A stretch of DNA of 64,000 nucleotides from an uncultured Actinomycetes bacterium (GCA_963755025.1 CAVWIH010000014.1:256001-320000), one strand, 5' to 3'; positions 1-28,286 are shown, numbered from the stretch's first letter. Notes: generated by a model not told the origin, from the sequence alone. Numbers and translations: made by a program.

Positions 1-61
1 GACTCCTCCTTCGAGCTCGCACGCACGCGGTCCGCGCCGGCTCTAGCCGGCGTCGGCCCTG

Positions 62-592
62 TCAGATGAACAGGTTGACGTTAGCCTCGTCGGCCTCGCC
101 CAGGTACGAGCCCACGCCGGCGAACTCGAGGCCGTCCATGAGCTCCTCTTCGCGCAGGCCCATGACGTCCATCGACATGGTGCAGGCGACCATCTTGATG
201 CCCTGTTCCCTGGCGCTCTCGATGAGCTCGTCGAGGGTCATGACGTTGTTGTCCTTCATGACCTTCTTCATGAGGGGCGCGCCCATGCCGGCGAAGTTCA
301 TCTTCGACAGGCCGAGCTTGTTGGCGCCCCGCGGCATCATCTTGCCGAACATCGCCTGCAGCGCCGACTTCTTCTTGCCGACCTGCACCTTCTCCGCCTT
401 GCGCAGGGCGTTCAGGCCCCAGAAGGTGAAGAACATGGTGACGTCGTCGCCCATGGCCGCGGCGCCGTTGGCGATGATGAAGGCGGCCATCATCTTGTCG
501 AAGTCGCCGCTGAACACGATGATCGTCTTCTTCGTGGTGCGCACGTCGACCGAGTCGGCGCTCTCCATGACGGCTTGTGTCTGGTCGTCCAT
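62..592 (-). CDS. DsrE/DsrF/DrsH-like (DsrE2-type) sulfur carrier protein
   Basis: Motifs IIVFSGDFDK, MFFTFWGL, ACTMSMDVMG and C-terminal NLFI typical of the DrsE_2 family; AAGGAG RBS upstream. Confidence 0.9.
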   Translation of the reverse strand: MDDQTQAVMESADSVDVRTTKKTIIVFSGDFDKMMAAFIIANGAAAMGDDVTMFFTFWGLNALRKAEKVQVGKKKSALQAMFGKMMPRGANKLGLSKMNFAGMGAPLMKKVMKDNNVMTLDELIESAREQGIKMVACTMSMDVMGLREEELMDGLEFAGVGSYLGEADEANVNLFI

Positions 593-605
593 CAAGTGCT
601 CTCCT

Positions 606-1583
606 TCAAGATGCGTAGGCTGCGCGCAGGTACTGCGAGATGTCCTTGAAGCGCATGGTGTCGCCGGCCGCGTTGCTCAGGTTCACGAAGCACATGGGGC
701 ACATGGTGACCGCGTCGGGCGCGGCCTCGCGGAGCTGCGCGACGCGCTTCTCCGCGTTGGCGATCGCCTTGGCCGGGTAGAGCGACTCGACGGGGCCGCC
801 GCAGCACCAGGTCTGGCGGCCCGAGTTCTCGGGGTCGCGGACGGTCAGGCCGGCCGCGGCGAGCAGCTCGCGCGGCTCGTCGACGATGCCCTCGTAGCGG
901 GCAAAGACGCAGGAGTCGTGCACCACGATCTCGCCCGAGAGCGCCCTGGCGGTGTGGCCGTTCGCGCCGAAGCCCTTCTCGACCAGCACCTCGAGGTAGC
1001 TCTTCACCTCGACGTCGTAGCCGCTCAGGATCTTGGGATAGACGCTGCGCAGCATGGTCGTGGTGTGCGGGTCGATGGTGATCACGGTCTTCACGCCGCG
1101 CGCTTTGAACGCGGCGTGGACCTTCTTGGCGTGCTCGACCACGACCTCGTCGAGGCCCAGGTCGTAGGCCAGGGCGCCCGAGTAGAGGTCGTCCTCGTAC
1201 AGGGCTCCGAACTGCACGCCGGCCTTGCGCAACAGGTGGACGACGTTGACCGGCACCTGGTCGTAGACGGCGCGCTCCGCTGCCGAGGGCCGTGCCATGA
1301 ACGCGGAGATGTTGAGCATGCGGTTCACGCGACGGCCCAGGCCGGTGTACTTGCCGAGCCACGAGTCGCCGAACTTGATCTCCGCCTTCACGAGGCCCTC
1401 GATGTACGGGATGAGCTGGTACATCAGCCCCGTATAGAGCACGGTCTCCCCGCCGCGCGGCAGGTCGAGGCCCTCGGTCCACTTGGTAGCCACCCGGGTC
1501 GACAGGGGAAGCACCGACTTTCGCAGGCGCAGGTTGTCGCCCAGGATGCCGATCACGTCACCGGTAGGAAGAGGCATCGTCAT
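606..1583 (-). CDS. CCG-domain (Fe-S)-binding protein, HdrB/HdrD-like
   Basis: HDSC...WCCGG...CPMC cysteine-rich CCG domain in the C-terminal half; overlaps the upstream 4Fe-4S gene. Confidence 0.85.
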   Translation of the reverse strand: MTMPLPTGDVIGILGDNLRLRKSVLPLSTRVATKWTEGLDLPRGGETVLYTGLMYQLIPYIEGLVKAEIKFGDSWLGKYTGLGRRVNRMLNISAFMARPSAAERAVYDQVPVNVVHLLRKAGVQFGALYEDDLYSGALAYDLGLDEVVVEHAKKVHAAFKARGVKTVITIDPHTTTMLRSVYPKILSGYDVEVKSYLEVLVEKGFGANGHTARALSGEIVVHDSCVFARYEGIVDEPRELLAAAGLTVRDPENSGRQTWCCGGPVESLYPAKAIANAEKRVAQLREAAPDAVTMCPMCFVNLSNAAGDTMRFKDISQYLRAAYAS

Positions 1584-1894
1584 CCCTCCCCAAGGCCGTA
1601 GCTGGTTCGCACGATGTGGTGCCGCAGCGTGCGCACGTTCTCGGCGATGTGCACGCCCGCGGGGCAGTTCTCTTCACACATCTTGCAGAGCAGGCAGGAG
1701 AAGACGCTTTCGGTCTCCGCCCTGACCCTGGTCTCCATGCCGAGGAGCACGTACCGGAACAGTTTGCGCACCTCGGCGTCGACGCCCATCGGACAGATGG
1801 CGGAGCACACCCCGCAGTTCATGCAGGCGTCGGCGTTGAACTCGTCGGAGCGCGCCAGCTCCATCGCCAGCCCGGGGTTCACGAGAGCCGTCAT
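1580..1894 (-). CDS. 4Fe-4S dicluster protein, HdrC-like
   Basis: CMNCGVCSAICP and CLLCKMCEENCP ferredoxin motifs. Confidence 0.88.
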   Translation of the reverse strand: MTALVNPGLAMELARSDEFNADACMNCGVCSAICPMGVDAEVRKLFRYVLLGMETRVRAETESVFSCLLCKMCEENCPAGVHIAENVRTLRHHIVRTSYGLGEG

Positions 1895-2190
1895 GAGCCC
1901 TCCCTCTCCACCACTTGGTAGCGGTAGTAGCCTTCGTCGTTGACTTCTTTGATCTCGGCCAGCCAGCCGTACTTGCGTAGGCCCATGACCCAGAACATCG
2001 CTTCGTGGGCCGGCCGCTCGATGGCCGCCGCGATCTCGGGCACCGTGAGGGGCCCGTCGGCGAGCACGGCCAGGATGCGGCGTCGCATGACCTGCTCGTC
2101 GCGCACGATCTCGCGTACGTCGCGCTGGCCCGGCGCGGCGTCCCTGATCACAGGGCGGACCGTCGTGATCGCCTTCTCGTCAGGCGTCAT
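1891..2190 (-). CDS. small winged-helix protein in the hdr operon
   Basis: 99 aa from ATG at 2190; RRRILAVLADGPLTVPEIAAAI wHTH pattern; ATGA overlaps at both ends. Confidence 0.75.
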   Translation of the reverse strand: MTPDEKAITTVRPVIRDAAPGQRDVREIVRDEQVMRRRILAVLADGPLTVPEIAAAIERPAHEAMFWVMGLRKYGWLAEIKEVNDEGYYRYQVVEREGS

Positions 2191-3926
2191 GAGCAGGTCA
2201 CCTCCAGGAGGCCGTCGATCATGGACCTGATCTGGGCATCGGTGTAGCCCTGCAGGTCGACAGCGTCGCTGGCGCACACGGGCACGCAGCCGCCGCAGCC
2301 CTTGCAGGCCGTTCTGATGACCTGGGCAATCTGCCTGCCGTCGGCTTCGACCTGCTCGATCGCGTCGTAGGGGCAGGCCTCCTGGCACTTGCCGCACCAG
2401 GTGCAGGCCTCGGCGGCGACCAGCGCCACCATGGGGTCGAGCTCGGCGAAGCCGCGCTTGAGCATGGCGCCGCTCTGCGTGACGGCCGCAAGGCCGCTGG
2501 CGACGCTCTCGGCTGAGTTCTTGGGCGCCTGGCACGCGCCGCAGATGAGCACGCCGTCGACGATCGTCTCGACGGGTCGCAGCTTGGGGTGGATCTCGTT
2601 GTAGAAGCCGTCGTTGCCCACCGGAAGCTTGAGGACGCCGGTGAGCTCGGCGTTCTCGCGCGGCACCATGCCGGTGACGAGCACGACGAGGTCGGCCGGA
2701 ATGGCCACCTCTTCCCCGCCGGTCAGCAGGTCGTTCGTGGTGACCTTGAGACCGCCGGAGGAGAGTCTCTCGACCGCCGGCGGCTCGTCGTCGGGCACCC
2801 GCAGGTAGAGCGAGCCCTTCTCGCGCGACTCGCTCCACAGCAGCTCGTACTTGCCGTAGGTGCGCATGTCGCGGTAGAGGTGGTACTGACGCAGCCCGGG
2901 GTCGCCCTTGGCGGCCGCCTCGAGCGCGGTGTGCACCGCAGACGTGCAGCAGTAGCGCGAGCAGTAGGTGTGAGCGCCGTCTAAGCTCTCGTCCTGACGG
3001 CTGCCGACGCAGTAGACGTAGGCGATGGTCTTCACCGGCCGGCCGTTGTACTGCAGCGGGCCGTCCGCTGCGTCGACCATCGTCTTGAACTGCGGCAGCG
3101 TCACCACGCCGTCCAGGCCGTAACCGAACTCGCCGGCCGTCGGCTCGTAGTCGTCGAAGCCGGTGGCGGCGACGATCGAGCCGACGTCGAGCTGGATCGT
3201 CTCGAGCTGGTCGCCGTGAATGGCGATAGTCACCTGGTTGTTGCCAAAGCTGCCGCTCTTGGCCATCAGCTCGGCATTGGTGAACACGGTGATCGCCGGG
3301 TTGGCGCGCACCCTCTCCTCGAGCGTGGCCACCAGGTCAGAGCCCTTGCGGCCTTGCGGGAACATGGGGCCGTACGCGGCCACACGGCCGCCGAGCCGGG
3401 CCTCTTTCTCGACCAGGAAGACGGTGAGGCCGATCTCCGCCAGCCCCAGCGCCGCACGCAGGCCGGCGATGCCGCCGCCCACGACGAGGCTCTTGGGCGT
3501 CGTCTCGACGACGATCGGTTCGAGCGGTTCGGTGAGGCGCGTGCGGTTGATGCCGGCGCGCACAAGGCGCACCGCCTTTTCGGTGGCGCCGGTCTTGTCG
3601 TCGGTGTGCGTCCAGGAGCACTGCTCGCGCACGTTCACCTGCGTGTACTGGAAGGGGTTCATGCCGGCGCGCTTGGCGACGTCGCGGAACGTCAGCGTGT
3701 GCAGCTTGGGAGAACAGGAGGCCACGACGAGGGCGTCGAGGCCCTGCTCCTGGGCATCCTGCACGATCTCCTGCTGGGTCGCGTCGGAGCAGGTGAACAT
3801 CGCGGAGCGGGCGACCACGACGTCGTCGTCCCCCTTGATCTCGGCGACGACCTTGTCGACGTCGACGTAGTCGCCGATGTTGCCGCCGCACTGGCAGACG
3901 TACACGCCGATCTTGCGGCCGCTCAT
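2187..3926 (-). CDS. hdrA: heterodisulfide reductase subunit A-like flavoprotein (579 aa)
   Basis: N-terminal IGVYVCQCGGNI, VVASCSP, GGGIAG FAD motif, CVGSR..CSRYCC, C-terminal 2x[4Fe-4S]; start ATG at 3926. Confidence 0.9.
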   Translation of the reverse strand: MSGRKIGVYVCQCGGNIGDYVDVDKVVAEIKGDDDVVVARSAMFTCSDATQQEIVQDAQEQGLDALVVASCSPKLHTLTFRDVAKRAGMNPFQYTQVNVREQCSWTHTDDKTGATEKAVRLVRAGINRTRLTEPLEPIVVETTPKSLVVGGGIAGLRAALGLAEIGLTVFLVEKEARLGGRVAAYGPMFPQGRKGSDLVATLEERVRANPAITVFTNAELMAKSGSFGNNQVTIAIHGDQLETIQLDVGSIVAATGFDDYEPTAGEFGYGLDGVVTLPQFKTMVDAADGPLQYNGRPVKTIAYVYCVGSRQDESLDGAHTYCSRYCCTSAVHTALEAAAKGDPGLRQYHLYRDMRTYGKYELLWSESREKGSLYLRVPDDEPPAVERLSSGGLKVTTNDLLTGGEEVAIPADLVVLVTGMVPRENAELTGVLKLPVGNDGFYNEIHPKLRPVETIVDGVLICGACQAPKNSAESVASGLAAVTQSGAMLKRGFAELDPMVALVAAEACTWCGKCQEACPYDAIEQVEADGRQIAQVIRTACKGCGGCVPVCASDAVDLQGYTDAQIRSMIDGLLEVTCS

Positions 3927-6646
3927 GACGCCACCTTCGCTTTCGCCGCTTCGCTCACGTGCGCTCGCTCCAGGTGGGCTGCGGCCTGTGCGACCGCGGC
4001 GCCCGCGTGGAGGATCGAGTCGGGGATGTCCTTGGCCCCGGCGGCCGCGCCGGCGACGAATACGCCGGGGAGGTTGGTGCGACCGGGGTCGAGGTCTTCG
4101 TCGGCCTCGCCGACGTAGAAGTAGTCGTCGAGCGCGAGGGCGCCGTCGCCGTCGCCGAACAGTTCGGCGACCCCGAGGCTGGGCTGCACGCCGACCGCGA
4201 GGACGACCATGTCGTGCTCGGTCTCGGCGAGCGTGCCGCCGTTCTCGATGTCTTCGTAGCGCAGCACGAGGTTGCCCTCGCCCGTCTCGGTGATGCCCGA
4301 GACACGGCCCTTCACGAAGTTGGCGCCCATGTCTTTGGCCTGCTGGTAGAACTCGTCGTAGCCCTTGCCGACCGAGCGCACGTCGATGTAGTAGACGGTG
4401 ACGTCGGCGAGGGGCAAGGCGCCCATGATGAGCTGGTTCTGCTTGACCGAGTACATGCAGCAGATCTTGGAGCACAGCGGGTTGTCGACGGTCTCGTCGC
4501 GCGACCCGGTGCACATGACGTAGGCGATGTTGTCCGGCACCTTGCCGTCGCTGGGGCGCAGCACCGCGTTGTAGGGCCGCGTCGGCGCCAGCAGGCGGTC
4601 CATCTGCATGCCGGTGATCACGTTCTTGTACCGGCCGTACCCGTACTGCGGCTTGGCGTCGGCCGGGAAGAGCCTGAAGCCGGTGGCCAGCACCACGGTG
4701 CCGACCTCGGCCTCGAACTCGCGCTCGCGGTCGTCGAGGTTGATGGCGTCGGCGGGACAGACGTCGACGCAGGCGTGGCACTCCGAGCAGACGCCGCAGT
4801 CGAGGCAGCGGGCGGCGCCGAGGAACGCTTCGTCCTCGGTCAGTGTGGCCTCGGTCTCGGCGAAGTCGCTCGGCGAGGCGCTCATGGCGGCGCTCGACTC
4901 GAGCGGCTCGCGCCGGTCGTAGACGTCTTGCCGGCGAAGCACCGTGTCCTTGTCGACGACGGCCAGAGCCTCGTCGAAGGCGTCCGCGTCCATCGCGGCG
5001 CCCTGCAGGTAACGGTCGATCATGAAGGCGGCGCGGCGGCCGTGGCCGACGGCGCTGTTGATCATCGTGGGGCCGGTGACCACGTCGCCGGCGGCAAAGA
5101 CGTGCGGCACGGCGGTCTGCAGCGTGGCGGGGTCGGCCTTGAGGGTGTGGTTGCCGTTGGTCTCGAGGCCGAACGCCGCCGTGTCGGCGCCCATGCCGGC
5201 GGCGACGATCACGACGTCGCACTCAAGGGACTTGTGCTGACTCTCGTCGTACTCGGGCCTGAAACGGCCGTCGGGGTCGAAGACGCAGGTGCAGACCTTG
5301 AGGTCGGCGCCCTGCACGTGGCCCTCGCCGGTGAAGTGATCGATGCCCCAGCCGTCGTGCAGGGTGATGCCCTCGGCCCTGGCCTCTGCGACTTCGAAGT
5401 CGTGGGCCGGCATCTCTTCGCAGCATTCCAGGCTGACCTGGTCGACCGACGCGGCGTCGAGGCGGCGCGCCGTGCGCGCCGCGTCGATGGCGACGTTGCC
5501 GCCGCCGACCACCAGCACGCGTTTGCCGGCCACGTCGACGGCTTCGCCGAGCTTGACGGCGCGCAGGAACTCGAGCGCGGTCTGCACGCCGGCGAGCTCC
5601 TCGCCCGGCACGCGCAGACTCACGGACTTGTGGGTGCCCGTCGCCACAAGGACGGCGTCGAAGCCGTCGTTCTTGAGACCCGCGACGTCGTCGACCCGCG
5701 TGGCGGTCGCGATCTCGACACCGATCGCGGTGACGTTGGCGATGTCGTCGTCGATCACGTCGTTGGGCAGCCGGTATGCGGGGATGCCGAGGCGCAGCAT
5801 GCCGCCGGCCTGCGGGGCTGATTCAAAGATCTTGACGCCGTAACCCTTGCGCGCAAGCTGCCAGGCGGCGGTCAGGCCGGCCGGACCCGAGCCCACGACG
5901 GCGACCTTCTTGCCGTTCTGCTCGGGCTGCTCGAGAGGCTTCAGCTCTGCCTGCCCGTAGTGCCGGTCGGCGATGAAGCGCTTGAGCCGGCGAATGGGCA
6001 GCGGGCCCTCGAGCTCGCCGCGCGTGCACTGCTCTTCGCAGGGCGCGTAGCAGGCGCGCCCAAGCGAGCCGACCAGCGGCGTCGTCTCGAGCACCAGGCC
6101 AAAGGCCTCTTCGTATTCGCCGCTGCGCACGCGGGCCACGTAGCCGTGCGCCTTGATGCCCGCGGGGCACTCGTAGGTGCACGGCGAGACGCCGGCGCGG
6201 TCGATGACCGCCTTCTTGGGCACCGCCTGCGGAAAGGCGATGTAGGCGGCGCGGCGCGACACCATGTCGGCGTTGAACTCGTCGGGTACCGCCACGTTGC
6301 AGGCCATCTCGCACAGCCGGCAGCCGGTGCAGGCGGCCTCGTCGATGAACTTGGGCTTCTGGCGGATGGTGGCATGGTAGCCGCCGTTGCCGTCGGCGCG
6401 GATGCCGTCGACCTCGGCGTAGGTGAGCACGTCGATGTTGGGGTGGTGGACGGTGGCGGCCATCTTCGGGGTGGAGATGCAGCTCGCGCAGTCGAGCGTT
6501 GGAAAGACCTTGCTGAGCAGGATCATCTTGCCGCCCACGCTGGCCTGCTTTTCGACGACGAGCACCTTGTAGCCCATGTCGCCGAGCTTGAGGGCCGACT
6601 CCATGCCGCCGATGCCGCTGCCTACTACAAGAGCGTCGTACTTCAT
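3923..6646 (-). CDS. hdrA: HdrA-like flavoprotein with inserted GltD-type NAD(P)H oxidoreductase module (HdrL-like, 907 aa)
   Basis: VVGSGIGG, FPTLDCASC, ferredoxin motif, then SPCTYECP/GRACYAPC/VVGSGPAG/GGGNVAID GltD-like block, then CTGSRD..CSKICC HdrA C-terminal part. Confidence 0.88.
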   Translation of the reverse strand: MKYDALVVGSGIGGMESALKLGDMGYKVLVVEKQASVGGKMILLSKVFPTLDCASCISTPKMAATVHHPNIDVLTYAEVDGIRADGNGGYHATIRQKPKFIDEAACTGCRLCEMACNVAVPDEFNADMVSRRAAYIAFPQAVPKKAVIDRAGVSPCTYECPAGIKAHGYVARVRSGEYEEAFGLVLETTPLVGSLGRACYAPCEEQCTRGELEGPLPIRRLKRFIADRHYGQAELKPLEQPEQNGKKVAVVGSGPAGLTAAWQLARKGYGVKIFESAPQAGGMLRLGIPAYRLPNDVIDDDIANVTAIGVEIATATRVDDVAGLKNDGFDAVLVATGTHKSVSLRVPGEELAGVQTALEFLRAVKLGEAVDVAGKRVLVVGGGNVAIDAARTARRLDAASVDQVSLECCEEMPAHDFEVAEARAEGITLHDGWGIDHFTGEGHVQGADLKVCTCVFDPDGRFRPEYDESQHKSLECDVVIVAAGMGADTAAFGLETNGNHTLKADPATLQTAVPHVFAAGDVVTGPTMINSAVGHGRRAAFMIDRYLQGAAMDADAFDEALAVVDKDTVLRRQDVYDRREPLESSAAMSASPSDFAETEATLTEDEAFLGAARCLDCGVCSECHACVDVCPADAINLDDREREFEAEVGTVVLATGFRLFPADAKPQYGYGRYKNVITGMQMDRLLAPTRPYNAVLRPSDGKVPDNIAYVMCTGSRDETVDNPLCSKICCMYSVKQNQLIMGALPLADVTVYYIDVRSVGKGYDEFYQQAKDMGANFVKGRVSGITETGEGNLVLRYEDIENGGTLAETEHDMVVLAVGVQPSLGVAELFGDGDGALALDDYFYVGEADEDLDPGRTNLPGVFVAGAAAGAKDIPDSILHAGAAVAQAAAHLERAHVSEAAKAKVAS

Positions 6647-7113
6647 GCTGCCGATGCCTTTCGCGACGGGCCCAGCTTGGTCAGGACCGCGGAGAACTCG
6701 TGCATGTAGTTGGTGAAGGGCTCCGCGCAGACCGAGCAGATGGCCGCCATGCGCAGGCGTTGCGGCTCGTAACCGTGGTCGACGAGCAGCGTCTGGGCGG
6801 CGGCCATGATCTGCGAGGTGCGTTCGCTGCAGTCGGACAGGTAGGCGCACTCGTCGCCGTCGGCGGCGACGAAGACGCCGTCGAAGCCCTGCTGCACGGC
6901 GTAGAGCGCCCAGCTCGGCTTGATGCCGCTCGTGCAGGGCACGCTGATCACCATGACGTTGGGCGAGTAGTGCATGTGCGAGCTGCCCGCCAGGTCGATC
7001 CCCGGGTCGGAGATGTTGTTGGTGGACAGCACCAGGATACGGGGCACGAAGCTGTCGTCCCCGCCGTGCGCCGACGCAGCCGCGTCGACCGCCGTTGCGG
7101 CATCGGGCGCCAC
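6643..7113 (-). CDS. mvhD: MvhD/FlpD-like hydrogenase iron-sulfur subunit (atypical cysteines)
   Basis: DLAGSSHMHYSPNV..VPCTSG..GFDGVFVA..ECAY..RLRMAAI; GTG start overlaps the tusA stop. Confidence 0.75.
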   Translation of the reverse strand: MAPDAATAVDAAASAHGGDDSFVPRILVLSTNNISDPGIDLAGSSHMHYSPNVMVISVPCTSGIKPSWALYAVQQGFDGVFVAADGDECAYLSDCSERTSQIMAAAQTLLVDHGYEPQRLRMAAICSVCAEPFTNYMHEFSAVLTKLGPSRKASAA

Positions 7114-7364
7114 TACTTCATCTTCCTGACGTAGAGCTTCATGAAGCCGGGCTCTTCGACGGTGCCGAGGAACTCGTGGCCCATCTTCTTGCACCACGCC
7201 GGGAGGTCTTTCTGCGTGCCCGTGTCGGTGGCCATGACCTCCATGACGCCACCCACGGAGACGCTGGGAATGCCCTTCTTGGCGGCCAGGATGGGGCCTG
7301 GGCACGAGGTGCCTCTGGCGTCGACTACCTTCTCGGCCTGGATCGTGGTCAGGTCTTCTGTCAT
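7113..7364 (-). CDS. tusA: sulfurtransferase TusA family protein
   Basis: VDARGTSCPGP motif, 83 aa, AAGGAGGAG RBS. Confidence 0.93.
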   Translation of the reverse strand: MTEDLTTIQAEKVVDARGTSCPGPILAAKKGIPSVSVGGVMEVMATDTGTQKDLPAWCKKMGHEFLGTVEEPGFMKLYVRKMK

Positions 7365-7487
7365 GACGGCTCCTCCTTGAGGGACGACTGCTTGTGCTTG
7401 TGCCTTCATTCGCAAAGTGGCAGGAATCCTCGGCCTGTCCCGTGCGGTCTCGAGTGGGCTTGCCCGGCGGCCCGGCAGGCGCGCCGG

Positions 7488-7865
7488 CTAGGGCGCCGGC
7501 GGCAACGGCAGGTGCTGGACCGCCTCGAGCACGCCGGGAGCGAGCAACGACTCGCCCAGCTCGCGGTGCTGCTCGATCAGGGCCTGACGAATGAGGGTGC
7601 AGCCCTGGATGAACTTGGGGTTGGTCATCGAGTAATAGACCGTCTGCGCGTCTTTACGCGGCTTGACGAGCATCTGGTCCTTGAGGACGCGCAGGTGCTG
7701 CGAGACGTTGTGCACGGAGATCCCCAGGGCCTCGGCGAGGTCGCCGACGCACAGCTCCTGCTGGCTCAGGGCGTACAAGATGCCGAGCCGGTGAGGGTTC
7801 GCCAGGGCCCTGCAGAGCTCCGCGTGCATCCTGAAGAGGGGCTCCAGGTCGGCGGCCTGCGGCAT
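7488..7865 (-). CDS. ArsR/SmtB family transcriptional regulator
   Basis: RALANPHRLGIL..ELCVGDL..NVSQHLRVL..VYYS; start uncertain (7865 or 7892). Confidence 0.88.
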   Translation of the reverse strand: MPQAADLEPLFRMHAELCRALANPHRLGILYALSQQELCVGDLAEALGISVHNVSQHLRVLKDQMLVKPRKDAQTVYYSMTNPKFIQGCTLIRQALIEQHRELGESLLAPGVLEAVQHLPLPPAP

Positions 7866-7881
7866 GGTGTGATTGTCGTTC

Positions 7882-7907
7882 CGTATTTGCATAGTTTCAT
7901 ATATACG
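7882..7907. promoter_or_regulatory. AT-rich imperfect inverted repeat, possible ArsR operator/promoter
   Basis: CGTATTTGCATAGTTTCATATATACG immediately upstream of the ArsR gene in otherwise GC-rich DNA. Confidence 0.4.
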
Positions 7908-8017
7908 CTTTACCGCAGTCACGGTCAAGCAGTTGGTCGTCGCGGCACCCCGAGCTCCGTGCACCGAGTTCGAACGGCGGCCCGCTTTGCACAAGACTCT
8001 GCGGGAACTATACTGAC

Positions 8018-8415: not shown

Positions 8416-8505
8416 ATGGCTACAGTGACCATCCATGCGAAGAGCCGACCGTTCGTCGGTTGCGACCGGCGGCGTCTCGCCGCGGCCCCCGGCGCCGGGA
8501 GGTAG
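8416..8505 (+). CDS. putative 29-aa upstream small ORF (MATVTIHAKSRPFVGCDRRRLAAAPGAGR)
   Basis: GAAGGGG RBS; TAG 4 nt before the rhodanese start; positional equivalent exists before the second rhodanese. Confidence 0.35.
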   Translation: MATVTIHAKSRPFVGCDRRRLAAAPGAGR

Positions 8506-8509
8506 CGCG

Positions 8510-8865
8510 ATGTGGCCGTTTCGCCGTGCGCCCCGCGCACCTGCTTCGGCGCCCACCACGATCGACGTCCGTGAGGCGTGGGCCAGAACGCGCAAGGGCG
8601 CGCGGCTGGTCGATGTGCGCTCGGGGCGCGAGTTCGCCGGGGGCCACCCCAAGGGCGCGCGCAACCTGCCGCCGGCGCGCATAAAGTCCGGCGAGACCGG
8701 CCTGGCGCTGGAAGACGAGATCCTCGTCATCTGCCTGAGCGGGCATCGCAGCCCCCGGCAGGCCAGAAAGCTGGCGGCCATGGGATACGTCAACGTCGCC
8801 AACGTGAGCGGCGGCCTGCTCGCCTGGAACGCGCCGGTCTGCCGGTCAAGGGGTCGCGCCGATAG
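8510..8865 (+). CDS. rhodanese-like domain protein, copy 1 (1-nt frameshift near 8828)
   Basis: LVDVRS..EF..GH, VICLSGHRS active site, GGLLAW; the paralog-matching tail RAGLPV lies in another frame ending at TAG 8865. Confidence 0.85.
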
Positions 8866-9037
8866 CCCTTTCACGCACGGCCCGGTGATCGCCGGGCACG
8901 ACATCGATCTCTGCCTTGGTTCTCCGGTCTGAACAGCTCCGGATAAGGCGGCCACGCCGGGGCCATCAGCACGGCGATCCCAAAGCGATGACGACGAGAG
9001 CCGGCGCGCGAATAACTCGAACGAGGAGGGTCAAGGG

Positions 9038-10409
9038 ATGAAGGTGCTGGTGCTCGGCGGGGGTCCCGCCGGCTACGTGGCCGCGGGCCGTGCCGCACAA
9101 CTCGGCGCCGAGGTGACCGTCGTCGAGGCGCGCGAGGTCGGCGGCATCTGCCTTAACCGCGGCTGCGTTCCGACCAAGGCGATGGTCGCGGGCGCCCAAC
9201 GCTTAGACCAGGCGCGGCGGGCGGCCGAGTACGGCGTCACCACCGGCGAGGTGAGCCTCGATTTCGCCTCGTTCATGTCCCGCAAAGACGCCGTCACCGC
9301 GCAGCTGCGCGACGGTGTCGCGCGGCTGCTCAAGGCGCGGCACGTCGAGGTCGTGGCGGCTCGCGGCCGCCTGGCGGGGCCGGGCAAGGTGGCGCTCGAC
9401 GACGGAACCGAGCTCACGGGCGACGCCGTCATCCTGGCGAGCGGCTCCGACCCGGTGCGCCTGTCGCTCTTCGATTTCGCAGACCCGCGCGTGATGACGA
9501 GCGACGAACTGCTCGTCGTCGACCATGTTCCGGCCAGCCTCGCCATCGTGGGCGGCGGCGTGATCGGCTGCGAGTTCGCCTCGATCTTCGCCCGGCTGGG
9601 CAGCAAGGTGACCGTGATCGAGATGCTCGACCAGCTCCTGCCCGGCGAAGACAAACGTGCCGGTCGCACCCTGCAGACGGCGTTCACAAAAGCCGGCATC
9701 GGGGTCGTCGTCAAAGCCGGCGTGGACAGCGTGGACCAGACCGACCCCTCAGGCGTGAGACTGCGCCTGGCCAACGGCAGCGAGCTCGTCGCCGAAGCCG
9801 TGCTGGTCGCCGTCGGACGCCGACCGCTCAGCCGTGGGCTGGGCTACGAAGAGGCGGGCGTCGAGGTCGGCCCTCAGGGCTTCGTCGTCACCGACGAGAC
9901 GATGCGCACGAAAGTCGCGGGGGTGTTCGCGGCGCGCGACGTGGCCGGCGCTCCGCTGCTCGCCCACTGGGCCTACCACCAGGGCGCGATCGCCGCCGAG
10001 AACGCCGTGACCGGCTCCCGCATCGCCTACGATCGGCGCATCGTCCCCTCGTGCGTGTTCAGCTCACCAGAGGTGGCGAGCTTCGGCCTGAGCGAGGACC
10101 GCGCCGCGGCCGAGGGCCGCGAGGTGCCAGATCGCCCACGCGCGTTTCAACGGCAGCTCCAAGGCCGTGGTCGACGGCGACGCCGACGGCTACGTGCGCA
10201 TCTGCTGCGAGCCGGGCGGCGGCGCCATTCTGGGTGCCAGCCTGGTGGGGCCGCACGTCAGCGACCTGGTGCACGAGCTCGCCCTGGCGGCGCAGGCCGG
10301 CTTGACCCTCAGCCAGGTGACGGAGACCATCCACGCCCACCCCACGCTGAGCGAGGCGATCGGTGAGGCGGCGCTGAGCGGCTTGGGACGCGGGATGCAC
10401 AGCCTGTGA
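9038..10409 (+). CDS. lpdA: dihydrolipoamide dehydrogenase (frameshift near 10127)
   Basis: GGGPAG, GGICLNRGCVP redox disulfide, GGGVIG, C-terminal HAHPTLSE in the shifted frame. Confidence 0.88.
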
Positions 10410-14721: not shown

Positions 14722-14747
14722 ATATGGGCATGTGCTCATAATGAGCA
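14722..14747. promoter_or_regulatory. overlapping palindromes upstream of the DUF134 gene
   Basis: TATGGGCATGTGCTCATA (14/18 self-complementary) overlapping TGCTCAT-A-ATGAGCA. Confidence 0.55.
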
Positions 14748-14851
14748 TCGGCGTGATGAGCTTGGTGGCAGCGTTTGCGGAGTTCGGCGACGGCCCGCAT
14801 CCGCCCGCCGCGACGGCGATGACGCCGACCTGCCGACCGAGAGGGAGATGC

Positions 14852-15781
14852 GTGGCGCGCCCGCCGATCGAACGTTCCGTCGAAGGAATCCCGCACATCA
14901 CGCTCTTCAAGCCGGCCGGCGTGCCGGCGCGCGAGCTCGAGCAGCTTCAGCTGACCGTCGACGAGCTCGAAGCCATCCGCCTCGTCGACCTCGAGGCGCT
15001 CAGTCACGAGCAGGCCGCCGAGGCCATGGGAGTCTCTCGCCAGACCGTGGGTCGCGTGCTCGAGCGTGGCCGTGCCAAGGTCGCCGAGGCCCTTGTCGGC
15101 GGCAAGGCCATCCTCATCGGCGGCGGCCAGTACCGGGTGCTGCCACGTATGCGCTGTTTCGCCTGCCAGAGCCTCTGGGTCGCAGATGCCGAAGTTCCGG
15201 GCCGCGTGACCTCATGCCCCAGATGCGGCTCCACCGATGTGGGCGCGTGCTGGGGCCCCGGTGCGCGCCGCGGCTGCCGGCAAGGCCGCGACGACCCCCG
15301 AGGACCCGGCTGCGGCCGCGGGGGCCAGCGACGTTCTCTGCAGCAACCAGTAACAAATCGACGAACCGATGAATCGACGACCGAGAGTGAGAACCACATG
15401 AGCGACCAGACCAGCACGACGATCCGCATCGCCATTCCCTCCGAGGCGCCCGGCGGCCTCGAAGCCCGCCGCTCAGGCCACTTCGGCCGCTGTGAGTGCT
15501 TCACGATGGTCGACGTGACCGACGGCGCAGTGGGTGAGGTCGAGATCCTCGAAAACGCGCCGCACACCGAGGGCGGCTGCCTGGGCCCAGTCACGCTGCT
15601 CGCCGAGCACAACGTCGACGCCATCGTCGTCGACGGCATCGGCGGCCGCCCGTTGATGGGCTTCAACCAGGTGGGCATCGCCGTGCACGCCGGTATCGGC
15701 GGCGACGTGCAGTCCGCCGTCTCCGCCTACCTTCAGGGCGGCCTGCCGGTCGTTGGACTCGAAGGCTCCTGCCAGCACTGA
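14852..15781 (+). CDS. DUF134 HTH protein in frame with a NifB/NifX-family (FeMo-co-binding-like) domain; second start likely at 15398
   Basis: LTVDELEAIRL..AAEAMGVSRQT DUF134 motif, CxxC..CxxC ribbon, then RIAIPS..SGHFGRCECF NifX motif. Confidence 0.8.
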   Translation: MARPPIERSVEGIPHITLFKPAGVPARELEQLQLTVDELEAIRLVDLEALSHEQAAEAMGVSRQTVGRVLERGRAKVAEALVGGKAILIGGGQYRVLPRMRCFACQSLWVADAEVPGRVTSCPRCGSTDVGACWGPGARRGCRQGRDDPRGPGCGRGGQRRSLQQPVTNRRTDESTTESENHMSDQTSTTIRIAIPSEAPGGLEARRSGHFGRCECFTMVDVTDGAVGEVEILENAPHTEGGCLGPVTLLAEHNVDAIVVDGIGGRPLMGFNQVGIAVHAGIGGDVQSAVSAYLQGGLPVVGLEGSCQH

Positions 15782-15866
15782 TCGGCGAGCGAAGAAGCCC
15801 GTCGCTAACCCGAACGGGTCAGAGGGTGCCGCCACGAACGCAGGCAACGAACCGGGAGTCAAGCTC

Positions 15867-16304
15867 ATGAAGAAGATAGGCATCATCATCTGCGATCGCT
15901 ATCACACGTGCGCCGGGGGCAAATGCCTGCGCGCCATGCGAGAGCGCGACGGCGCATTCGCCGTCTACGGGAACGAAGAGATCGAGCTGGTCGGGTTCAC
16001 CACCTGCGGCGGCTGCCCCGGGGGCAACGTGGAGTACGCTCCCGCGGAGATGAAGAAGAACGGCGCCGAGGTGATCCACCTGGCTACCGGCCTGGTGGTC
16101 GGCTATCCGCCCTGCCCGAGGATCGATGCGTTCGGCGAGTTCATCCCTGCCAAGTACGGCCTGGACGTCGTCGTGGGTACCCACCCCATCCCCGAAAACT
16201 ACTATCAGACGCATGAAGCCCTGGGGACCTGGAGCTCGGCCGACTGGCAGCGTCGTATCGAGCACATCGTGACGGACCCCGAGACGCGCCGGGCATACGA
16301 CTGA
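15867..16304 (+). CDS. CGGC domain protein
   Basis: KIGIIIC..CAGGKC..TCGGCPG..GTH motifs. Confidence 0.9.
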   Translation: MKKIGIIICDRYHTCAGGKCLRAMRERDGAFAVYGNEEIELVGFTTCGGCPGGNVEYAPAEMKKNGAEVIHLATGLVVGYPPCPRIDAFGEFIPAKYGLDVVVGTHPIPENYYQTHEALGTWSSADWQRRIEHIVTDPETRRAYD

Positions 16305-17912: not shown

Positions 17913-18308
17913 TCAGCCCAGGGCGGCGACGACGCGCGTGAAGCGCTGCTTCACCTCGGCGGCGATCTGGTCGAGCACGGGGTTGGCGATCTGGCCGAGC
18001 ATGCCGGCCGGGTCGACCGCGCTCACGTGCGTGCCGTCGGCCGCCTCGTAGACGACGACGTTACAGGGCAGGAACACGCCCAAGTCGGGTTCGGCCTCGA
18101 GCGCCTGGTGGGCGAGCCGCGGGTTGCAGGCGCCGATGATGAGGTAGCGACCGCGCTCGATGCCGAGCTTCTCCTTGAGCGCGCCCCGCACGTCGATCTC
18201 GCTCAGTACGCCGAAGCCCTCATCCTTAAGCGCTTCTTTGACGCGCGGCACGACCTCGTCGTAGGGCGCGGCGAGCGTCGTGCCGATCGCATAAGCAGGT
18301 ACGTCCAT
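17913..18308 (-). CDS. DUF302 domain protein
   Basis: EGFGVLSEIDV..IIGACNP..LPCNVVV. Confidence 0.92.
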   Translation of the reverse strand: MDVPAYAIGTTLAAPYDEVVPRVKEALKDEGFGVLSEIDVRGALKEKLGIERGRYLIIGACNPRLAHQALEAEPDLGVFLPCNVVVYEAADGTHVSAVDPAGMLGQIANPVLDQIAAEVKQRFTRVVAALG

Positions 18309-18343
18309 GGCTCCCCCTTCGATTCCGACTCCGTGCACCACGG

Positions 18344-23579: not shown

Positions 23580-26500
23580 TCAGAGCGCCGCAGCGACCCC
23601 GGCGCCCTGCGAGAAGCAGACGCAGCGGTCGCGTCCGCCGCGCTTGGCGCTGTACATGGCGCGCTCGGCGCGGTCGAGGAGCGCCTCTTTGGTGCGGCCG
23701 TCGTGCGGCAAGGTGACCACGCCGACGCTCACCGTGAGCGCCTGCCCGTCGGGCCTCAGCCGCGCCCCGGCGATCGTCGTCCGCAGGCGCTCCGCCACCT
23801 CGAGGGCGCCCTCGCGGCCGGTGCCGGCCAGCACGATGGCGAACTCGTCGCCACCGTAGCGCGCAGCCAGGTCGGTCTGGCGGATGGCGTGGCTCGCGAT
23901 GTCGGCCACCCGCTTGAGCACCTCGTCGCCCTCGGCGTGACCGAAGCGGTCGTTCAGCTCCTTGAACTGGTCGATGTCGAAGAACAGCAACGACAACTCC
24001 ACGTTGTCGCCCAGGGCGGCCCACACGCGGTCGGTGAGCTCCTGCTGCAGGTGGCGGTGATTGTAGAGGCCGGTGAGGGCGTCGGTCATGGCGTCGATCT
24101 CGGCGCGCGTGAAGCGCTCCGCCGCGGAGCGTGTGAGCTCGGCGAAGGCAGCGGCGGCGTCGCTGCGCAGGCCGGAGAACGGCATCGCTTCGGCCGGCGC
24201 CATCCTGGCGCCGACGAGGCCGACGATCGCGCCGTCCACACCGCGGATGGCGGCCACGCCGGAGACCCACATGCCGTCTCCGTCGACCAGGATCACGTTG
24301 GAGTGCGGCGTGCGGTCGGCCAGGACGTCGAGCTCTTCGTCTTCAGCGAAGACGACCTTGCCGGTGAGCAGGGCGGCCTCGGAGTCGGGACCGGAATCGA
24401 CGACGACCAGGCAGCGCTGCTCGTCGACGGGCGCCTCGGTCACCAGGGTCTTCACCTGCGGGTGCGCCGCCAGCACGTCGCGTAGCGCATCGCGGACGCG
24501 CGCATACGCGGCGGTCCGGGCATGGTCGGCGCCGGCCGCCTGGAGCAGCAGCGCGTGGTCGCAAGGGTCGATCCGCGCGGCCGCCGCGGAGGCGGCGGCG
24601 CGCGTCACCACAGCGGCCGCCTGGAGCCTGCCCAGGACGCGGGCGAAGGCGGCCGTCATGTCGGCGTCGAACTGCTTGCCTTGGCACCGCGCCAGCTCGG
24701 CGAGACACTCGTCGTAGCTGAGGGCGGGCCGGTACGTGCGCTTGGAAGACATGGCGTCGTAACTGTCGACCACGCAGAGCAGGCGGGCTGTCTTGGGAAT
24801 GGCCGTGCCGGCGAGCCCGTCGGGGTAGCCGCTGCCGTCGTAGCGCTCGTGGTGATGGCGGATGCCGGCGACCAGCTCGCCCTCCAGGAGCGGCGCGACG
24901 ATCTCGGCGCTGACCACCGGGTGCTGCCGCATGAGCGCCCACTCCTCGGCGGTCAGGATGCCCGGCTTGAGCAGGATGCGGTCTGACACGGCGATCTTGC
25001 CGATGTCGTGCAGGTAGGCGATCTCTTCGATCTCCTGGATGGCGGCGCGCGACCAGCCGAGCTCCATCGCCAGCAGGACAGCGTAGGCGGCCACCCGGGC
25101 GGAGTGACCGATGGTGTAGTGGTCTTTGGCGCTGAGCGCCGAGCTCAGGGCCTTGAGGTTGCCCAGGTGCAGCCGCCTGATGCTGTCGAACAACCCCGCG
25201 TTCTTGACGGCCAGCGAGAGATGCGCGCTCAAACCTTCGAGAAGGCGCAGATCGCGCACCGAGAACGAGCCGTCCCTCGTCCTGCTCAGCACCAGCGCCC
25301 CGATCAGCTCGCGGTCGTCGAGCAGGCCGACTACGACCGCCGAGCGCAGGCCCTCGACGACCGGGTGCCCGGCGGCCAGCGGCAGATCGTCGGGCAGGCT
25401 GAGGGCCACGACCCGGTCGCGCCGCAAGGCCGCCAGGAACCGCCGGTCGATGCCGGCGATGGGGGTGTGGTGCAGCCGACTGGGGTTCTCGGTCGTGAAG
25501 GCGGCGTGCAGGGCGCCGTCGCTTTCCGCCAGGAGCAGGCCGGCGCGGTCGAACTCGATGAGGCCGGCGACGCTGTCTGTCACGGCGGCGGCGATCTCGG
25601 GCACGTTCAAGCTGGCTGAGGCGGCGCGGGCGATGTCGTTGAGCAGTTCGGTCTCGAGGGTCCGCAGCCGAAGGCTGTCGAACTGGCGCGCGTTGTGCAG
25701 GGCGATGGCTGCCTGCTCGCTCAGGCCGCGCAGGAGCGCGAGCTCGCCCGACGTGAACGCACGCTCGCGCTCGGTCTCGATCAGCACGAGGACGCCCAGC
25801 GGCTCGTCGCCGAAGTAGAGCGGGACGTTGACGCAGGTCTTCTCGCCCCACCGCTCCATGGAGTCGCGCACCTCGCGCGAGAGCTCGGCGTCGCCGAGCG
25901 TCTCCACGGTGATCAGGCGACCCTCGAGCAGCGCCCGGTCAGAGGGCGAGTCGGCGAGCGAGCACGACTTGCCCAGGTCCTGGTAGCCGGTCGGTCGTCT
26001 CTGATAGAGCGCCTTGGAGGTGAGCGCGTCGGCGCCCGCGTCGTAGTCGTAGATGATGCACTCGGCCGCGCCCAGGGCCCCGGCGACGCCGCTTGCGATG
26101 GTGGGCAGCAGCTCGTCGGGAGCGCCCACGGCGGTGATCGCGCGACCGACCTCGAGCAGCGCCGTCAGGCGGTGCGCGTGCTCCTCTTGCCGGCGGTACA
26201 GGCGGGCGTTGTGGATGGCGACGGCGGCCTGCTTGCCGAGCGCCTCGAGGGCCCCCACCTCGGCCGCGCTGAAGCGCCGCTCGGCGACCGTCTCGATCAC
26301 GACGAGCAGCCCCATGGGCTCGTCGCCAAAGCGCAGCGGCACGGTGAGGCAGGTCTTCTCGCCGCAGGCCTCCATCGACGCGTGGCTGGCCGGGTGGATG
26401 TGTGGGTCGGAGATGTGCTCGAGCACCGAGCGGCCGTCGAACAGCAGGGCGGCCTCGGCCGGCCTCTCGCGGAGCGGCACCGGCTCGCTCGTCGCATACT

Positions 26501-28019: not shown

Positions 28020-28164
28020 CGTACTGGGGAGCATCGGAGCAGGAGGCCGCGAACTTAAGCAACTCCACCATTCCGAACTCGCGGGGCGTCTTAGGGCGCT
28101 GCGCCGACGGCCGGATGCCTTACGGCCTGGGCCAGGGTGAGTACCGGAGGGCTGCCACGACGTA

Positions 28165-28286
28165 GAGACGGCGAACAGGACCAGCGCGCCCAGAAAGGTG
28201 CGCAGGGCGGCGAACGTGAACGGCTGCGAGTAGCGCAGCCCGACCTTCATGACCACCCAGTTGTAGCCCCAGACCAGCGCCAGGAC
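28165..28286 (-). pseudogene. EamA/DMT transporter N-terminal remnant
   Basis: VLALVWGYNWVVMKVGLRYSQPFTFAALRTFLGALVLF; no start codon and no continuation. Confidence 0.6.

Follow-up and report, generated by a model that had tools for sequence, protein, structure and literature searches.

A conserved operon joining an HdrA/HdrL module to TusA and DsrE2-like sulfur carriers in an uncultured actinobacterium, a possible NAD(P)H-linked reductase of protein-bound sulfane sulfur

Results and Discussion

An operon combining an Hdr-type module with sulfur carriers

The genes on the minus strand at positions 62-7865 of the stretch of DNA analysed here (64,000 nucleotides, G000:C14:256001-320000, hereafter the window), which comes from the metagenome-assembled genome (MAG) of an uncultured soil or peat actinobacterium, belong to an operon in which an Hdr-type iron-sulfur flavoprotein module is combined with TusA- and DsrE2-like sulfur carriers. 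Because the identical gene order recurs across phyla, the operon is real and far beyond chance. The cassette is widespread and uncharacterised, a variation on the pairing of Hdr with a sulfur relay in which each part is already known. Its product may be a reductase that draws on NAD(P)H, possibly with coupling to ferredoxin, and acts on sulfane sulfur bound to TusA/DsrE2B-like carriers, a reading to which we give a probability of about 0.45. Flavin-based electron bifurcation is, as far as is known, driven mainly by Hdr-type modules, and TusA and DsrE relays are known cytoplasmic movers of reactive sulfur; the two are joined in the conserved cassette, whose hosts belong to several phyla that are common in peat, sediments and wet soils. 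Since it is distinct from the sHdr, Qmo and methanogen Hdr systems, current pathway maps and annotation tools may lack part of the sulfur cycle or of sulfide-stress physiology, and the existence of cultured hosts makes the question directly testable.

Gene models were drawn from open reading frame (ORF) lists, start-codon inspection and Pfam and NCBIfam scans. All genes that a first-pass annotation had named in this interval were recovered, each on the minus strand:

7865..7488, minus: arsR, 125 aa (HTH_5, 1e-15)
7364..7113, minus: tusA, 83 aa (PF01206, 1.7e-20)
7113..6643, minus: flpD/mvhD, 156 aa (PF02662, 1.2e-28)
6646..3923, minus: hdrL, 907 aa, HdrA halves with a GltD/NfnB-like insert
3926..2187, minus: hdrA, 579 aa
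2190..1891, minus: winged-helix (wHTH) gene, 99 aa, HTH matches sub-threshold only
1894..1580, minus: hdrC-like gene, 104 aa
1583..606, minus: CCG/hdrB-like gene, 325 aa, a single PF02754 match at residues 220-302
592..62, minus: dsrE2-like gene, 176 aa (PF13686, 6.5e-64)
3..10, minus: ribosome-binding site of the tenth gene, AGGAGGAG, preceding an ATG just beyond the window
L003 11999..11589, minus: tenth gene, second DsrE2B-like, 136 aa, with its ATG 1-3 nt outside the window

The operon thus has ten genes, arsR included. The claim that it runs past position 1 was borne out by inspection of the DNA beyond the window edge, where the ribosome-binding site at 3-10 is followed by the second DsrE2B-like gene. 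Translational coupling was likewise as proposed, with start and stop codons overlapping by 1-4 nt at all six junctions from tusA through the CCG gene (the GTG start of flpD overlaps the tusA stop). A ribosome-binding site, AAGGAGGAG, lies upstream of tusA, which is separated from arsR by 123 nt; the gaps ahead of dsrE2 and of the tenth gene are 12 nt and ~60 nt, and a convergent methyltransferase gene lies after the second DsrE-like gene. At the genome's ~68% G+C, scans for terminators (none inside or after the operon) and promoters (one promoter-like site, plus strand 7986-8014, facing the rhodanese gene) are uninformative. Contigs from the RNA libraries of three studies (X18, X20 and X19), 90-99% alike, cover 28-30 of the 30 bins of window positions 1-8000; being short, lacking a silent control stretch and open to DNA carry-over, they give a hint at most of transcription among close relatives in samples from wetland and ice.

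Conservation and distribution of the cassette

Relatives of the CCG protein were found to be encoded in 494 genomes by a pattern scan of one genome per GTDB species with a 10-sequence alignment. Synteny was surveyed at the best 80 loci among these genomes, which are the closest relatives only (59-93% identity), by tblastn of the window proteins, counting for each gene only the loci with enough flanking DNA; 61 loci had full context. The genes hdrC (78/78), wHTH (77/78), hdrA (72/73), hdrL (67/68), flpD (65/66) and tusA (63/64) were nearly always present, and the seven-gene core was colinear in all but one of the best 80 loci. The single miss was each time L088, where 8861-9948 shows only hdrC and the CCG gene, without HdrA, HdrL, FlpD or TusA genes upstream. 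The wHTH gene was always located between hdrA and hdrC.

A PF13686 dsrE2-like gene was present in the cluster at 57 of the 61 full-context loci and was not found at L041, L048, L086 and L088. At 39 of the 57 it lies downstream of the CCG gene, and at the other 18 its place is upstream or internal; in L086, which has two copies of the main cassette type, a PF02635 DsrE gene stands beside tusA instead. Because the linkage is kept while the position of the carrier changes, it looks functional as judged from gene order. Linkage of tusA and dsrE, on which the first-pass annotation had staked its proposal beforehand, is therefore conserved.

An arsR gene was found upstream on the same strand in 28 of the 61 full-context loci. 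When the 814 flanking ORFs were clustered and the cluster representatives were scanned with Pfam, the recurrent neighbours were ArsR (32 loci), PF02635 DsrE (13), a second DsrE2-like protein (10), a second TusA (9), a CsoR-type repressor (8), a class-V aminotransferase (8), OsmC (6), TauE (5), a CoADR-rhodanese fusion (4) and thioredoxin (4). Hosts of the cassette include Thermoleophilia, Gaiellales, Solirubrobacterales, Acidimicrobiaceae, Dormibacterota, Limnocylindrales, a proteobacterium-labelled MAG and Bacillota, the cultured Bacillota being Desulfotruncus alcoholivorax DSM 16058, D. arcticus DSM 17038 and Desulfallas sp. Bu1-1. In D. alcoholivorax (L083:627-3028, minus), a CsoR/CstR-family repressor and a SulP-STAS sulfate permease are encoded divergently upstream, with no ArsR there. 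Within the family of the window genome the cassette is patchy, with high-identity copies in 9 of the 24 other genomes.

A maximum-likelihood tree was built from the conserved FAD-domain segment, as defined by tblastn, of 42 rows from the surveyed loci, a sample that contains no named reference sequence for sHdrA, methanogen HdrA or canonical QmoA/B. The HdrA and HdrL proteins of the cassette each formed a starred clade (100/99), each sister to its counterpart in a second, divergent and paralogous cassette of L014 and L015, and the Qmo-like pair of D. alcoholivorax and the other paralogs of the window genome fell outside both clades, on long branches that leave their exact placement unsure. The two clades are nearly equal in internal topology, and this near-congruence fits inheritance of HdrA and HdrL as a unit. 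In some pairs of the tree the two members bear different phylum labels (one pair joins a Bacillota to a Dormibacterota MAG, another a Limnocylindrales to a Solirubrobacterales MAG), which suggests lateral transfer or mis-binning. The divergent cassette is convergent to the first one (L014:11800-18300; L015:12600-17800, minus) and has the order arsR-tusA-flpD-hdrA' (without the NfnB insert)-hdrA-wHTH-hdrC-like; a 387-aa protein with an N-terminal dicluster ferredoxin domain (L015:11748-12911) adjoins it.

The probable HdrA/HdrL core and its proposed electron ports

Both HdrA paralogs match methanogen HdrA (5odc_A; 1e-111 for HdrA and 1.5e-99 for HdrL) far better than the sHdrA structure 6tjr_A (1.6e-30 and 4.1e-37). 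HdrA has an N-terminal Fe-S domain, an FAD domain with a four-Cys motif and a C-terminal 2x[4Fe-4S] ferredoxin domain. The inserted ferredoxin domain is missing from it (5odc residues 235-312 are skipped in the alignment), and no Cys stands opposite the 5odc Asp-Cys-Ser-Ile-Cys stretch that holds Cys197; its cluster cysteines are conserved in 45-47 of 47 sequences and those of the N-terminal domain (C11, C13, C46 and C71) in all 47. HdrL begins at the thioredoxin-reductase-type FAD domain and is without an N-terminal domain and without a C-terminal ferredoxin domain, and it retains the Asp-Cys-x-x-Cys (Cys197-type) ligand, with C53 and C56 conserved in 41/41. In HdrL the inserted ferredoxin domain is split by an NfnB/GltD-like FAD/NAD(P)H module of ~500 residues (~residues 142-648) with two dinucleotide-binding motifs. 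On either side of this module stands a ferredoxin-type Cys motif, both with their cysteines conserved in 41/41. HdrL scored 452 bits with NCBIfam PRK12771 and 440 bits with HdrA2, and its PDB matches are HdrA (8rvv_A, 1.2e-101) and the NfnB-like 9bov, 9n5u (NfnA), 8oh5 and 4ylf. The NAD(P)H link proposed in the first-pass annotation would be supplied by this module.

The complementary distribution of the N-terminal domain and Cys197 follows the heterodimeric tandem HdrA pattern of Chadwick et al. 2022, whose available text describes it for the tandem HdrA genes of anaerobic methanotrophic archaea (ANME) and also describes NfnB insertion into HdrA in ANME-1 HdrA9-11 (PMC9012536); the position of the module within the HdrA ferredoxin insert is that of the HdrL type. 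Because of this complementarity and the ANME precedent, an obligate asymmetric HdrA/HdrL heterodimer is likely to be the core of the complex. FlpD is a MvhD-like [2Fe-2S] electron-transfer subunit (PF02662, 100 bits) with five cysteines conserved in 65/65. Neither MvhAG nor formate dehydrogenase was among the ORFs scanned from ~12 kb downstream to ~24 kb upstream; a genome-wide hydrogenase search was not made.

The HdrC-like, CCG and winged-helix proteins

The HdrC-like protein, a 2x[4Fe-4S] ferredoxin, has about half the length of methanogen HdrC, matches TIGR03290 only at positions 2-78 of 144, and has eight cysteines conserved in 63-65 of 65. In three loci hdrC and the CCG gene are fused in frame (L032:8683-9960, L034:8689-9978 and L073:8683-9960; 425-429 aa).

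As judged from sequence clustering, the CCG protein defines a family of its own (of 2844 matches at E up to 1e-3, those with E <1e-30 form 126 clusters at 50% identity), and a search with representatives showed longer relatives (~400-440 aa) with an N-terminal extension of ~115 residues. In alignments of 42 and 36 sequences, the C-terminal half contains a complete, invariant five-Cys motif (C225, C260, C261, C295 and C298). The N-terminal half has no conserved Cys in the same alignments; its invariant residues are Trp35, Gln56, Tyr134, Asp171 and His173. The halves align weakly to each other (hhalign E 0.0039, probability 8.6%), in a register that places Tyr140-Asp141 and Asp171/His173 opposite cysteines. 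The sole sequence-based PDB match was 9ojn, with none to HdrB at E 0.01. A Foldseek search with the AlphaFold2 (AF2) model (pLDDT 85.8, pTM 0.88) returned EtfD (9ojn, 6.5e-12), LutA (2.6e-8) and methanogen HdrB (5.9e-6 to 9.5e-5). Because of these structural matches and the lone five-Cys motif, the protein has the HdrB fold and a single predicted non-cubane cluster site, comparable to that of DsrK-type enzymes.

The wHTH protein is without cysteine, has a conserved core at ~residues 22-95 and is translationally coupled on both sides. Sixteen residues are invariant over 42 sequences from several phyla, many of them within helix 3. Its AF2 model (pLDDT 85) has a minimal generic winged-helix fold, for which Foldseek gave only generic winged-helix matches (AdcR, SmtB, ZitR and Z-alpha domains, best E 1.2e-3), DsrD being absent among the matches listed; the Atlas look-alikes were only unnamed 'transcriptional regulator' clusters. 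A complex prediction of HdrA 140-579, HdrC and the CCG protein with wHTH scored 0.01 against a mark of 0.32, which weighs neither for nor against binding. The protein is a candidate for a subunit or a regulator.

Sulfur carriers and the ArsR-family regulator

TusA (PF01206, 73 bits, cut-off 28.6) has its active-site Cys21, conserved in 66/66, in a Cys-Pro-Gly-Pro motif and is below the NCBIfam TusA equivalog cut-off (52.7 vs 78). The dsrE2-like gene at 62..592 encodes a soluble DsrE2B-like carrier (PF13686, 215 bits) whose Cys137 is conserved in 66/67 and whose nearest structures are 3pnx_A (7.9e-33) and the DsrE2B-type 2qs7 (1.6e-18), with the DsrE3A-like 3mc3 at 1.7e-5. The name DsrE2 given in the first-pass annotation holds at the Pfam level only, since the protein is a PF13686 member but fails the NCBIfam equivalog NF047629 (91.7 bits vs a cut-off of 210). 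The second DsrE2B-like protein matches PF13686 under the cut-off (2e-4) and 2qs7 at 1.2e-8, and its C95 is conserved in 12/12. In the genome, TusA, both DsrE genes and the CCG family are confined to the operon locus (tblastn, 1e-4).

The regulator encoded by the first gene is of the ArsR/SmtB family (Pfam HTH_5, 1e-15; NCBIfam HTH_metalloreg, 91 bits, cut-off 55). Its conserved cysteines are C18 (30/31), C39 (28/31) and C89 (31/31), and its PDB matches to BigR (1.3e-8) and SqrR (8.6e-7) are both weaker than those to NolR and SmtB.

Proposed mechanism

For the reduction of carrier-bound sulfane sulfur we infer the following scheme, in its subunit contacts, substrate and direction as well as in any bifurcation. 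A soluble multi-flavin Fe-S complex would connect the S-S bond of protein-bound sulfur with NAD(P)H and, probably, with another partner of low potential. Within the asymmetric heterodimer, HdrL would supply the cysteine that completes a cluster of the HdrA N-terminal domain, and its inserted ferredoxin domain would be wired to the NfnB-like FAD/NADP(H) site. FlpD may dock on the C-terminal ferredoxin domain of HdrA as a third electron port, and electrons would pass through HdrC to the one non-cubane [4Fe-4S] cluster in the CCG protein. At this site, persulfide or polysulfide on the conserved cysteines of TusA and of the two DsrE2B-like proteins would be reduced to free thiol and H2S, in the way that DsrK acts on the DsrC trisulfide. 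A thiol-based sensor (ArsR here, CsoR/CstR-type in Bacillota) probably controls expression, and the physiological role may be removal or respiration-like use of sulfane sulfur at low oxygen.

This reading is consistent with the conserved carrier cysteines, the single CCG site and the linked regulators from families that include persulfide sensors, with the sulfide- and persulfide-handling genes that flank the operon (SQR-like, rhodanese and CoADR-like), and with occurrence in organisms and habitats where an oxygen-dependent persulfide dioxygenase cannot work. Several observations weigh against it. An SQR-like gene beside the operon (directly downstream in L060) would make persulfide reduction partly futile, and the nearby TauE, YeiH and SulP-type transporters suit sulfite or sulfate as product better than H2S. 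The sulfane sulfur/H2S couple, with a standard potential of ~ -270 mV, is a poor high-potential arm for NAD(P)H-driven bifurcation unless sulfide is low. The ArsR protein scores below the BigR equivalog cut-off (50.7 bits vs 155) and may be a sensor of metals.

A more specific form of the scheme is doubtful. It supposes a soluble three-port flavin-based bifurcating (or confurcating) sulfane-sulfur reductase in which HdrA/HdrL would couple NADP(H), a low-potential carrier via MvhD and a TusA/DsrE2 'protein heterodisulfide', with wHTH as a structural or allosteric subunit like DsrD. Were it true, soil and peat Actinomycetota, Dormibacterota, Chloroflexota and Gram-positive sulfate reducers would gain an energy-coupled route for intracellular zero-valent sulfur outside Dsr, Sox and sHdr.

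Comparison with known systems and alternative roles

On its gene content the cassette is distinct from sHdr, from QmoAB-HdrCB and from methanogen Hdr, in agreement with the first-pass annotation, which had set it apart from sHdr and HdrABC-MvhADG. No published description was found by a full-text literature search, which did not cover Appel et al. 2021 (BBA 1862:148379), Pereira et al. 2011 and Wagner et al. 2017.

Like sHdr, the cassette links genes for Hdr-type Fe-S flavoproteins with those for TusA and DsrE-family carriers, and both have a small extra gene between hdrA and hdrC. Whereas sHdr has the arrangement shdrC1B1AHC2B2 (type I) or sHdrB3-EtfAB-EMO (type II), the cassette, also at related loci, has one hdrC and one CCG gene; in place of the short, 6TJR-like sHdrA it has a pair of HdrA paralogs of the methanogen type, of which one contains an NfnB-like NADPH module, and it has a separate MvhD and DsrE2B-like rather than DsrE3-type carriers. 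No Pfam match to the lipoate-binding protein LbpA was present in the neighbouring ORFs scanned (~12 kb), and no genome-wide search for it was made. An oxidative, sHdr-like role, in which sulfane sulfur made by SQR would pass via rhodanese, TusA and DsrE2 to the CCG site and be oxidised there towards sulfite, with electrons going to NADP+ and/or ferredoxin and the product exported, is unlikely. It would fit the SQR-like, rhodanese, TauE and YeiH-type genes nearby, the terminal oxidase in the genome, and the excerpted survey of shdr clusters in which tusA (linked in 302/397 assemblies) and dsrE2 (in ~50% of clusters) are the commonest companions (PMC11094781). The missing C1B1/C2B2 duplication and the lack of a lipoate-binding protein within the ~12 kb scanned, the much greater closeness of both HdrA paralogs to methanogen HdrA than to sHdrA, the single cluster-binding CCG motif and the presence of the cassette in strict anaerobes (Desulfotruncus, Desulfallas) argue otherwise, and on standard potentials (our estimate) the step from sulfane sulfur to sulfite with NADP+ is uphill.

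Quite improbable is another carrier-bound substrate, either a thiosulfonate (TusA/DsrE-S-SO3-) that would be cleaved reductively to sulfite and persulfide or a TusA-DsrE2 di- or trisulfide serving as a 'bacterial heterodisulfide'. Thiosulfonate is carried by DsrE3A and TusA of Metallosphaera cuprina, as cited in an excerpt of PMC11094781, and TauE and SulP-type transporters recur near the cassette; the carriers here, however, are DsrE2B-like and not DsrE3A-like (2qs7 1.6e-18 vs 3mc3 1.7e-5), and no YeeE/YedE-type importer was found in the 84%-complete genome. The very low potential of thiosulfate cleavage would justify an HdrA-type low-potential machine.

Methanogen HdrABC-MvhADG (5ODC) contains the closest sequence relatives of both HdrA paralogs, and the cassette likewise has MvhD, HdrC and an HdrB-fold subunit. 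There, however, HdrA is a single four-domain homodimeric protein, whereas the cassette splits the domains over HdrA and HdrL and carries the NfnB-like module in the inserted ferredoxin domain. Methanogen HdrB has two CCG motifs, each for a non-cubane [4Fe-4S] cluster, of which the cassette protein keeps one; HdrC is ~half the length, and the operon is without a hydrogenase.

The soluble QmoAB-HdrCB (HdrAACB), which occurs in Gram-positive sulfate reducers and in certain sulfur oxidisers, resembles the cassette in its tandem HdrA paralogs followed by hdrC and hdrB and in its MvhD module. In contrast, the cassette is not beside aprBA, its MvhD is separate and not QmoB-fused, and it adds the NfnB insert, the wHTH gene, TusA and DsrE. 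D. alcoholivorax has a separate aprBA-qmoA-qmoB(MvhD-fused)-hdrC-hdrB locus, whose proteins are 26-39% identical to those of the cassette and whose HdrB gave no tblastn match to the CCG protein at 1e-3. From the gene order hdrA-hdrA-hdrC-hdrB with MvhD, which recalls QmoAB-HdrCB/HdrAACB as described in the text drawn on from PMC6397845 and PMC10504309, the cassette could be taken for a Qmo-like electron-transfer module serving an unlinked enzyme (APS reductase or another reductase), with TusA and DsrE merely co-regulated. This is quite unlikely, since carriers linked at varying positions in 57/61 loci are hard to explain by co-regulation alone, the 84%-complete genome was found without DsrA and without AprA over the cut-off, and the distinct Qmo locus of D. 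alcoholivorax has its rows outside the cassette clades, though on long branches.

HdrL and HdrA-NfnB fusions (Desulfobacterium autotrophicum HdrL, S. fumaroxidans Sfum_0819-0824 and ANME-1 HdrA9-11) share the NfnB-like NAD(P)H module inside HdrA, the tandem HdrA proteins of ANME (HdrA5/6 and 12/13) share the N-terminal-domain/Cys197 complementarity, and such clusters have MvhD without a hydrogenase. Unlike the cassette, they are discussed, in the portions of the sources available, with DsrC, CoM-S-S-CoB or formate dehydrogenase and not with TusA/DsrE carriers, and the same portions do not mention a one-CCG HdrB-like protein or a wHTH gene for them. The S. fumaroxidans HdrABC/HdrL cluster, which shares HdrL and MvhD, is described in the excerpt of PMC5947623 as detected only with sulfate and is proposed there to act on DsrC.

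A functional analogy exists with DsrK of DsrMK(JOP), in which a single CCG cluster site acts on sulfur between or on protein cysteines. DsrK itself, however, forms one chain with its ferredoxin portion and is anchored to DsrM, the membrane quinol module; the cassette has no DsrC, and the CCG protein reached only 21.9 bits with NCBIfam DsrK (cut-off 400). The best structural matches of the CCG model, EtfD (Mycobacterium smegmatis, 9ojn) and LutA (9a6l), belong to other settings, EtfD being a long membrane protein that oxidises electron-transfer flavoprotein and LutA taking part in lactate utilisation, and neither is tied to sulfur carriers. In its operon logic the cassette resembles the cst-type reactive-sulfur operons and the systems of NAD(P)H persulfide reductases (CoADR-RHD, Npsr), which likewise bring together a thiol-based repressor, TusA/DsrE/rhodanese carriers, SQR and an NAD(P)H-dependent sulfane-sulfur reductase; their reductases are single flavoproteins, whereas the cassette would encode a six-subunit Fe-S/flavin complex.

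A role in selenium handling, in which carrier-bound selenopersulfide would be reduced to selenide for SelD, is very unlikely indeed. The genome has a SelD gene with an in-frame TGA, HdrL, HdrC and the CCG protein weakly match NCBIfam NF045663 ('diclust_near_Sec'), and TusA weakly matches YedF models. All NF045663 scores, however, are far under the cut-off of 530, and SelD shows no association with the cassette, being present in 7 of the 9 same-family genomes with the cassette vs 14 of the 15 without it, counts that come from kin that are not independent and in part from incomplete genomes. The SelD gene (G000:C28:111226-112143, outside the window) has one in-frame TGA and probably encodes a selenocysteine-containing protein; SelD with TGA is common in the class, SelD being present in 32/41 genomes. 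A paralog (59-66% identity) of a 442-aa Pyr_redox_2 flavoprotein of the window lies ~4 kb upstream of it (G000:C28:106696-107786).

Host genome and surroundings of the operon

The host MAG is 84% complete with 5% contamination, so that absences from it are not proof. Because the nearest relatives are MAGs labelled Thermoleophilia (up to 93% CCG-protein identity among the best 80 loci), the host is an actinobacterium, as the first-pass annotation had it. The word 'anaerobic' in that annotation is unsupported: the genome encodes a COX1 haem-copper oxidase (C14:130124-131461, 525 bits), so that the host is at most facultative. In this 84%-complete genome, DsrA, AprA over the cut-off (best 25.7 bits vs 641.75) and a YeeE/YedE-type importer were not found.

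Upstream of the operon and divergent from it are a rhodanese gene (8435-8932) and the gene for the 442-aa Pyr_redox_2 flavoprotein, of the CoA-disulfide-reductase type (9038-10366). The downstream neighbours are an OsmC-like gene accompanied by a second ArsR, a DUF6951 gene, and genes for an SQR-like flavoprotein and a PF03601 (YeiH-type) membrane protein. The DUF6951 gene (L003 8181-8507, plus) is on the strand opposite to the adjoining SQR-like gene (8512-9717, minus).

Three further loci of the HdrA/HdrL/FlpD/HdrC type were observed in the genome (C16:647-4554, C20:99431-106413 and C27:24137-32763), all without TusA, DsrE and the CCG family. This set of bifurcation-type modules is unusually rich for a genome that also has a haem-copper oxidase.

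Close to the sulfur island are small redox- or metal-associated genes, encoding a DUF134 and Nitro_FeMo-Co fusion followed by a CGGC-domain protein (window 14732-16304, plus) and a DUF302 protein (window 17913-18341, minus). The region is flanked by genes for two paralogous signalling proteins (window 23580-28256, minus; L003 3629-6040, minus) with the domain order MerR-type HTH_17, GAF, HD-GYP-type HD_5 and GGDEF, the 1558-aa copy having five GAF stretches.

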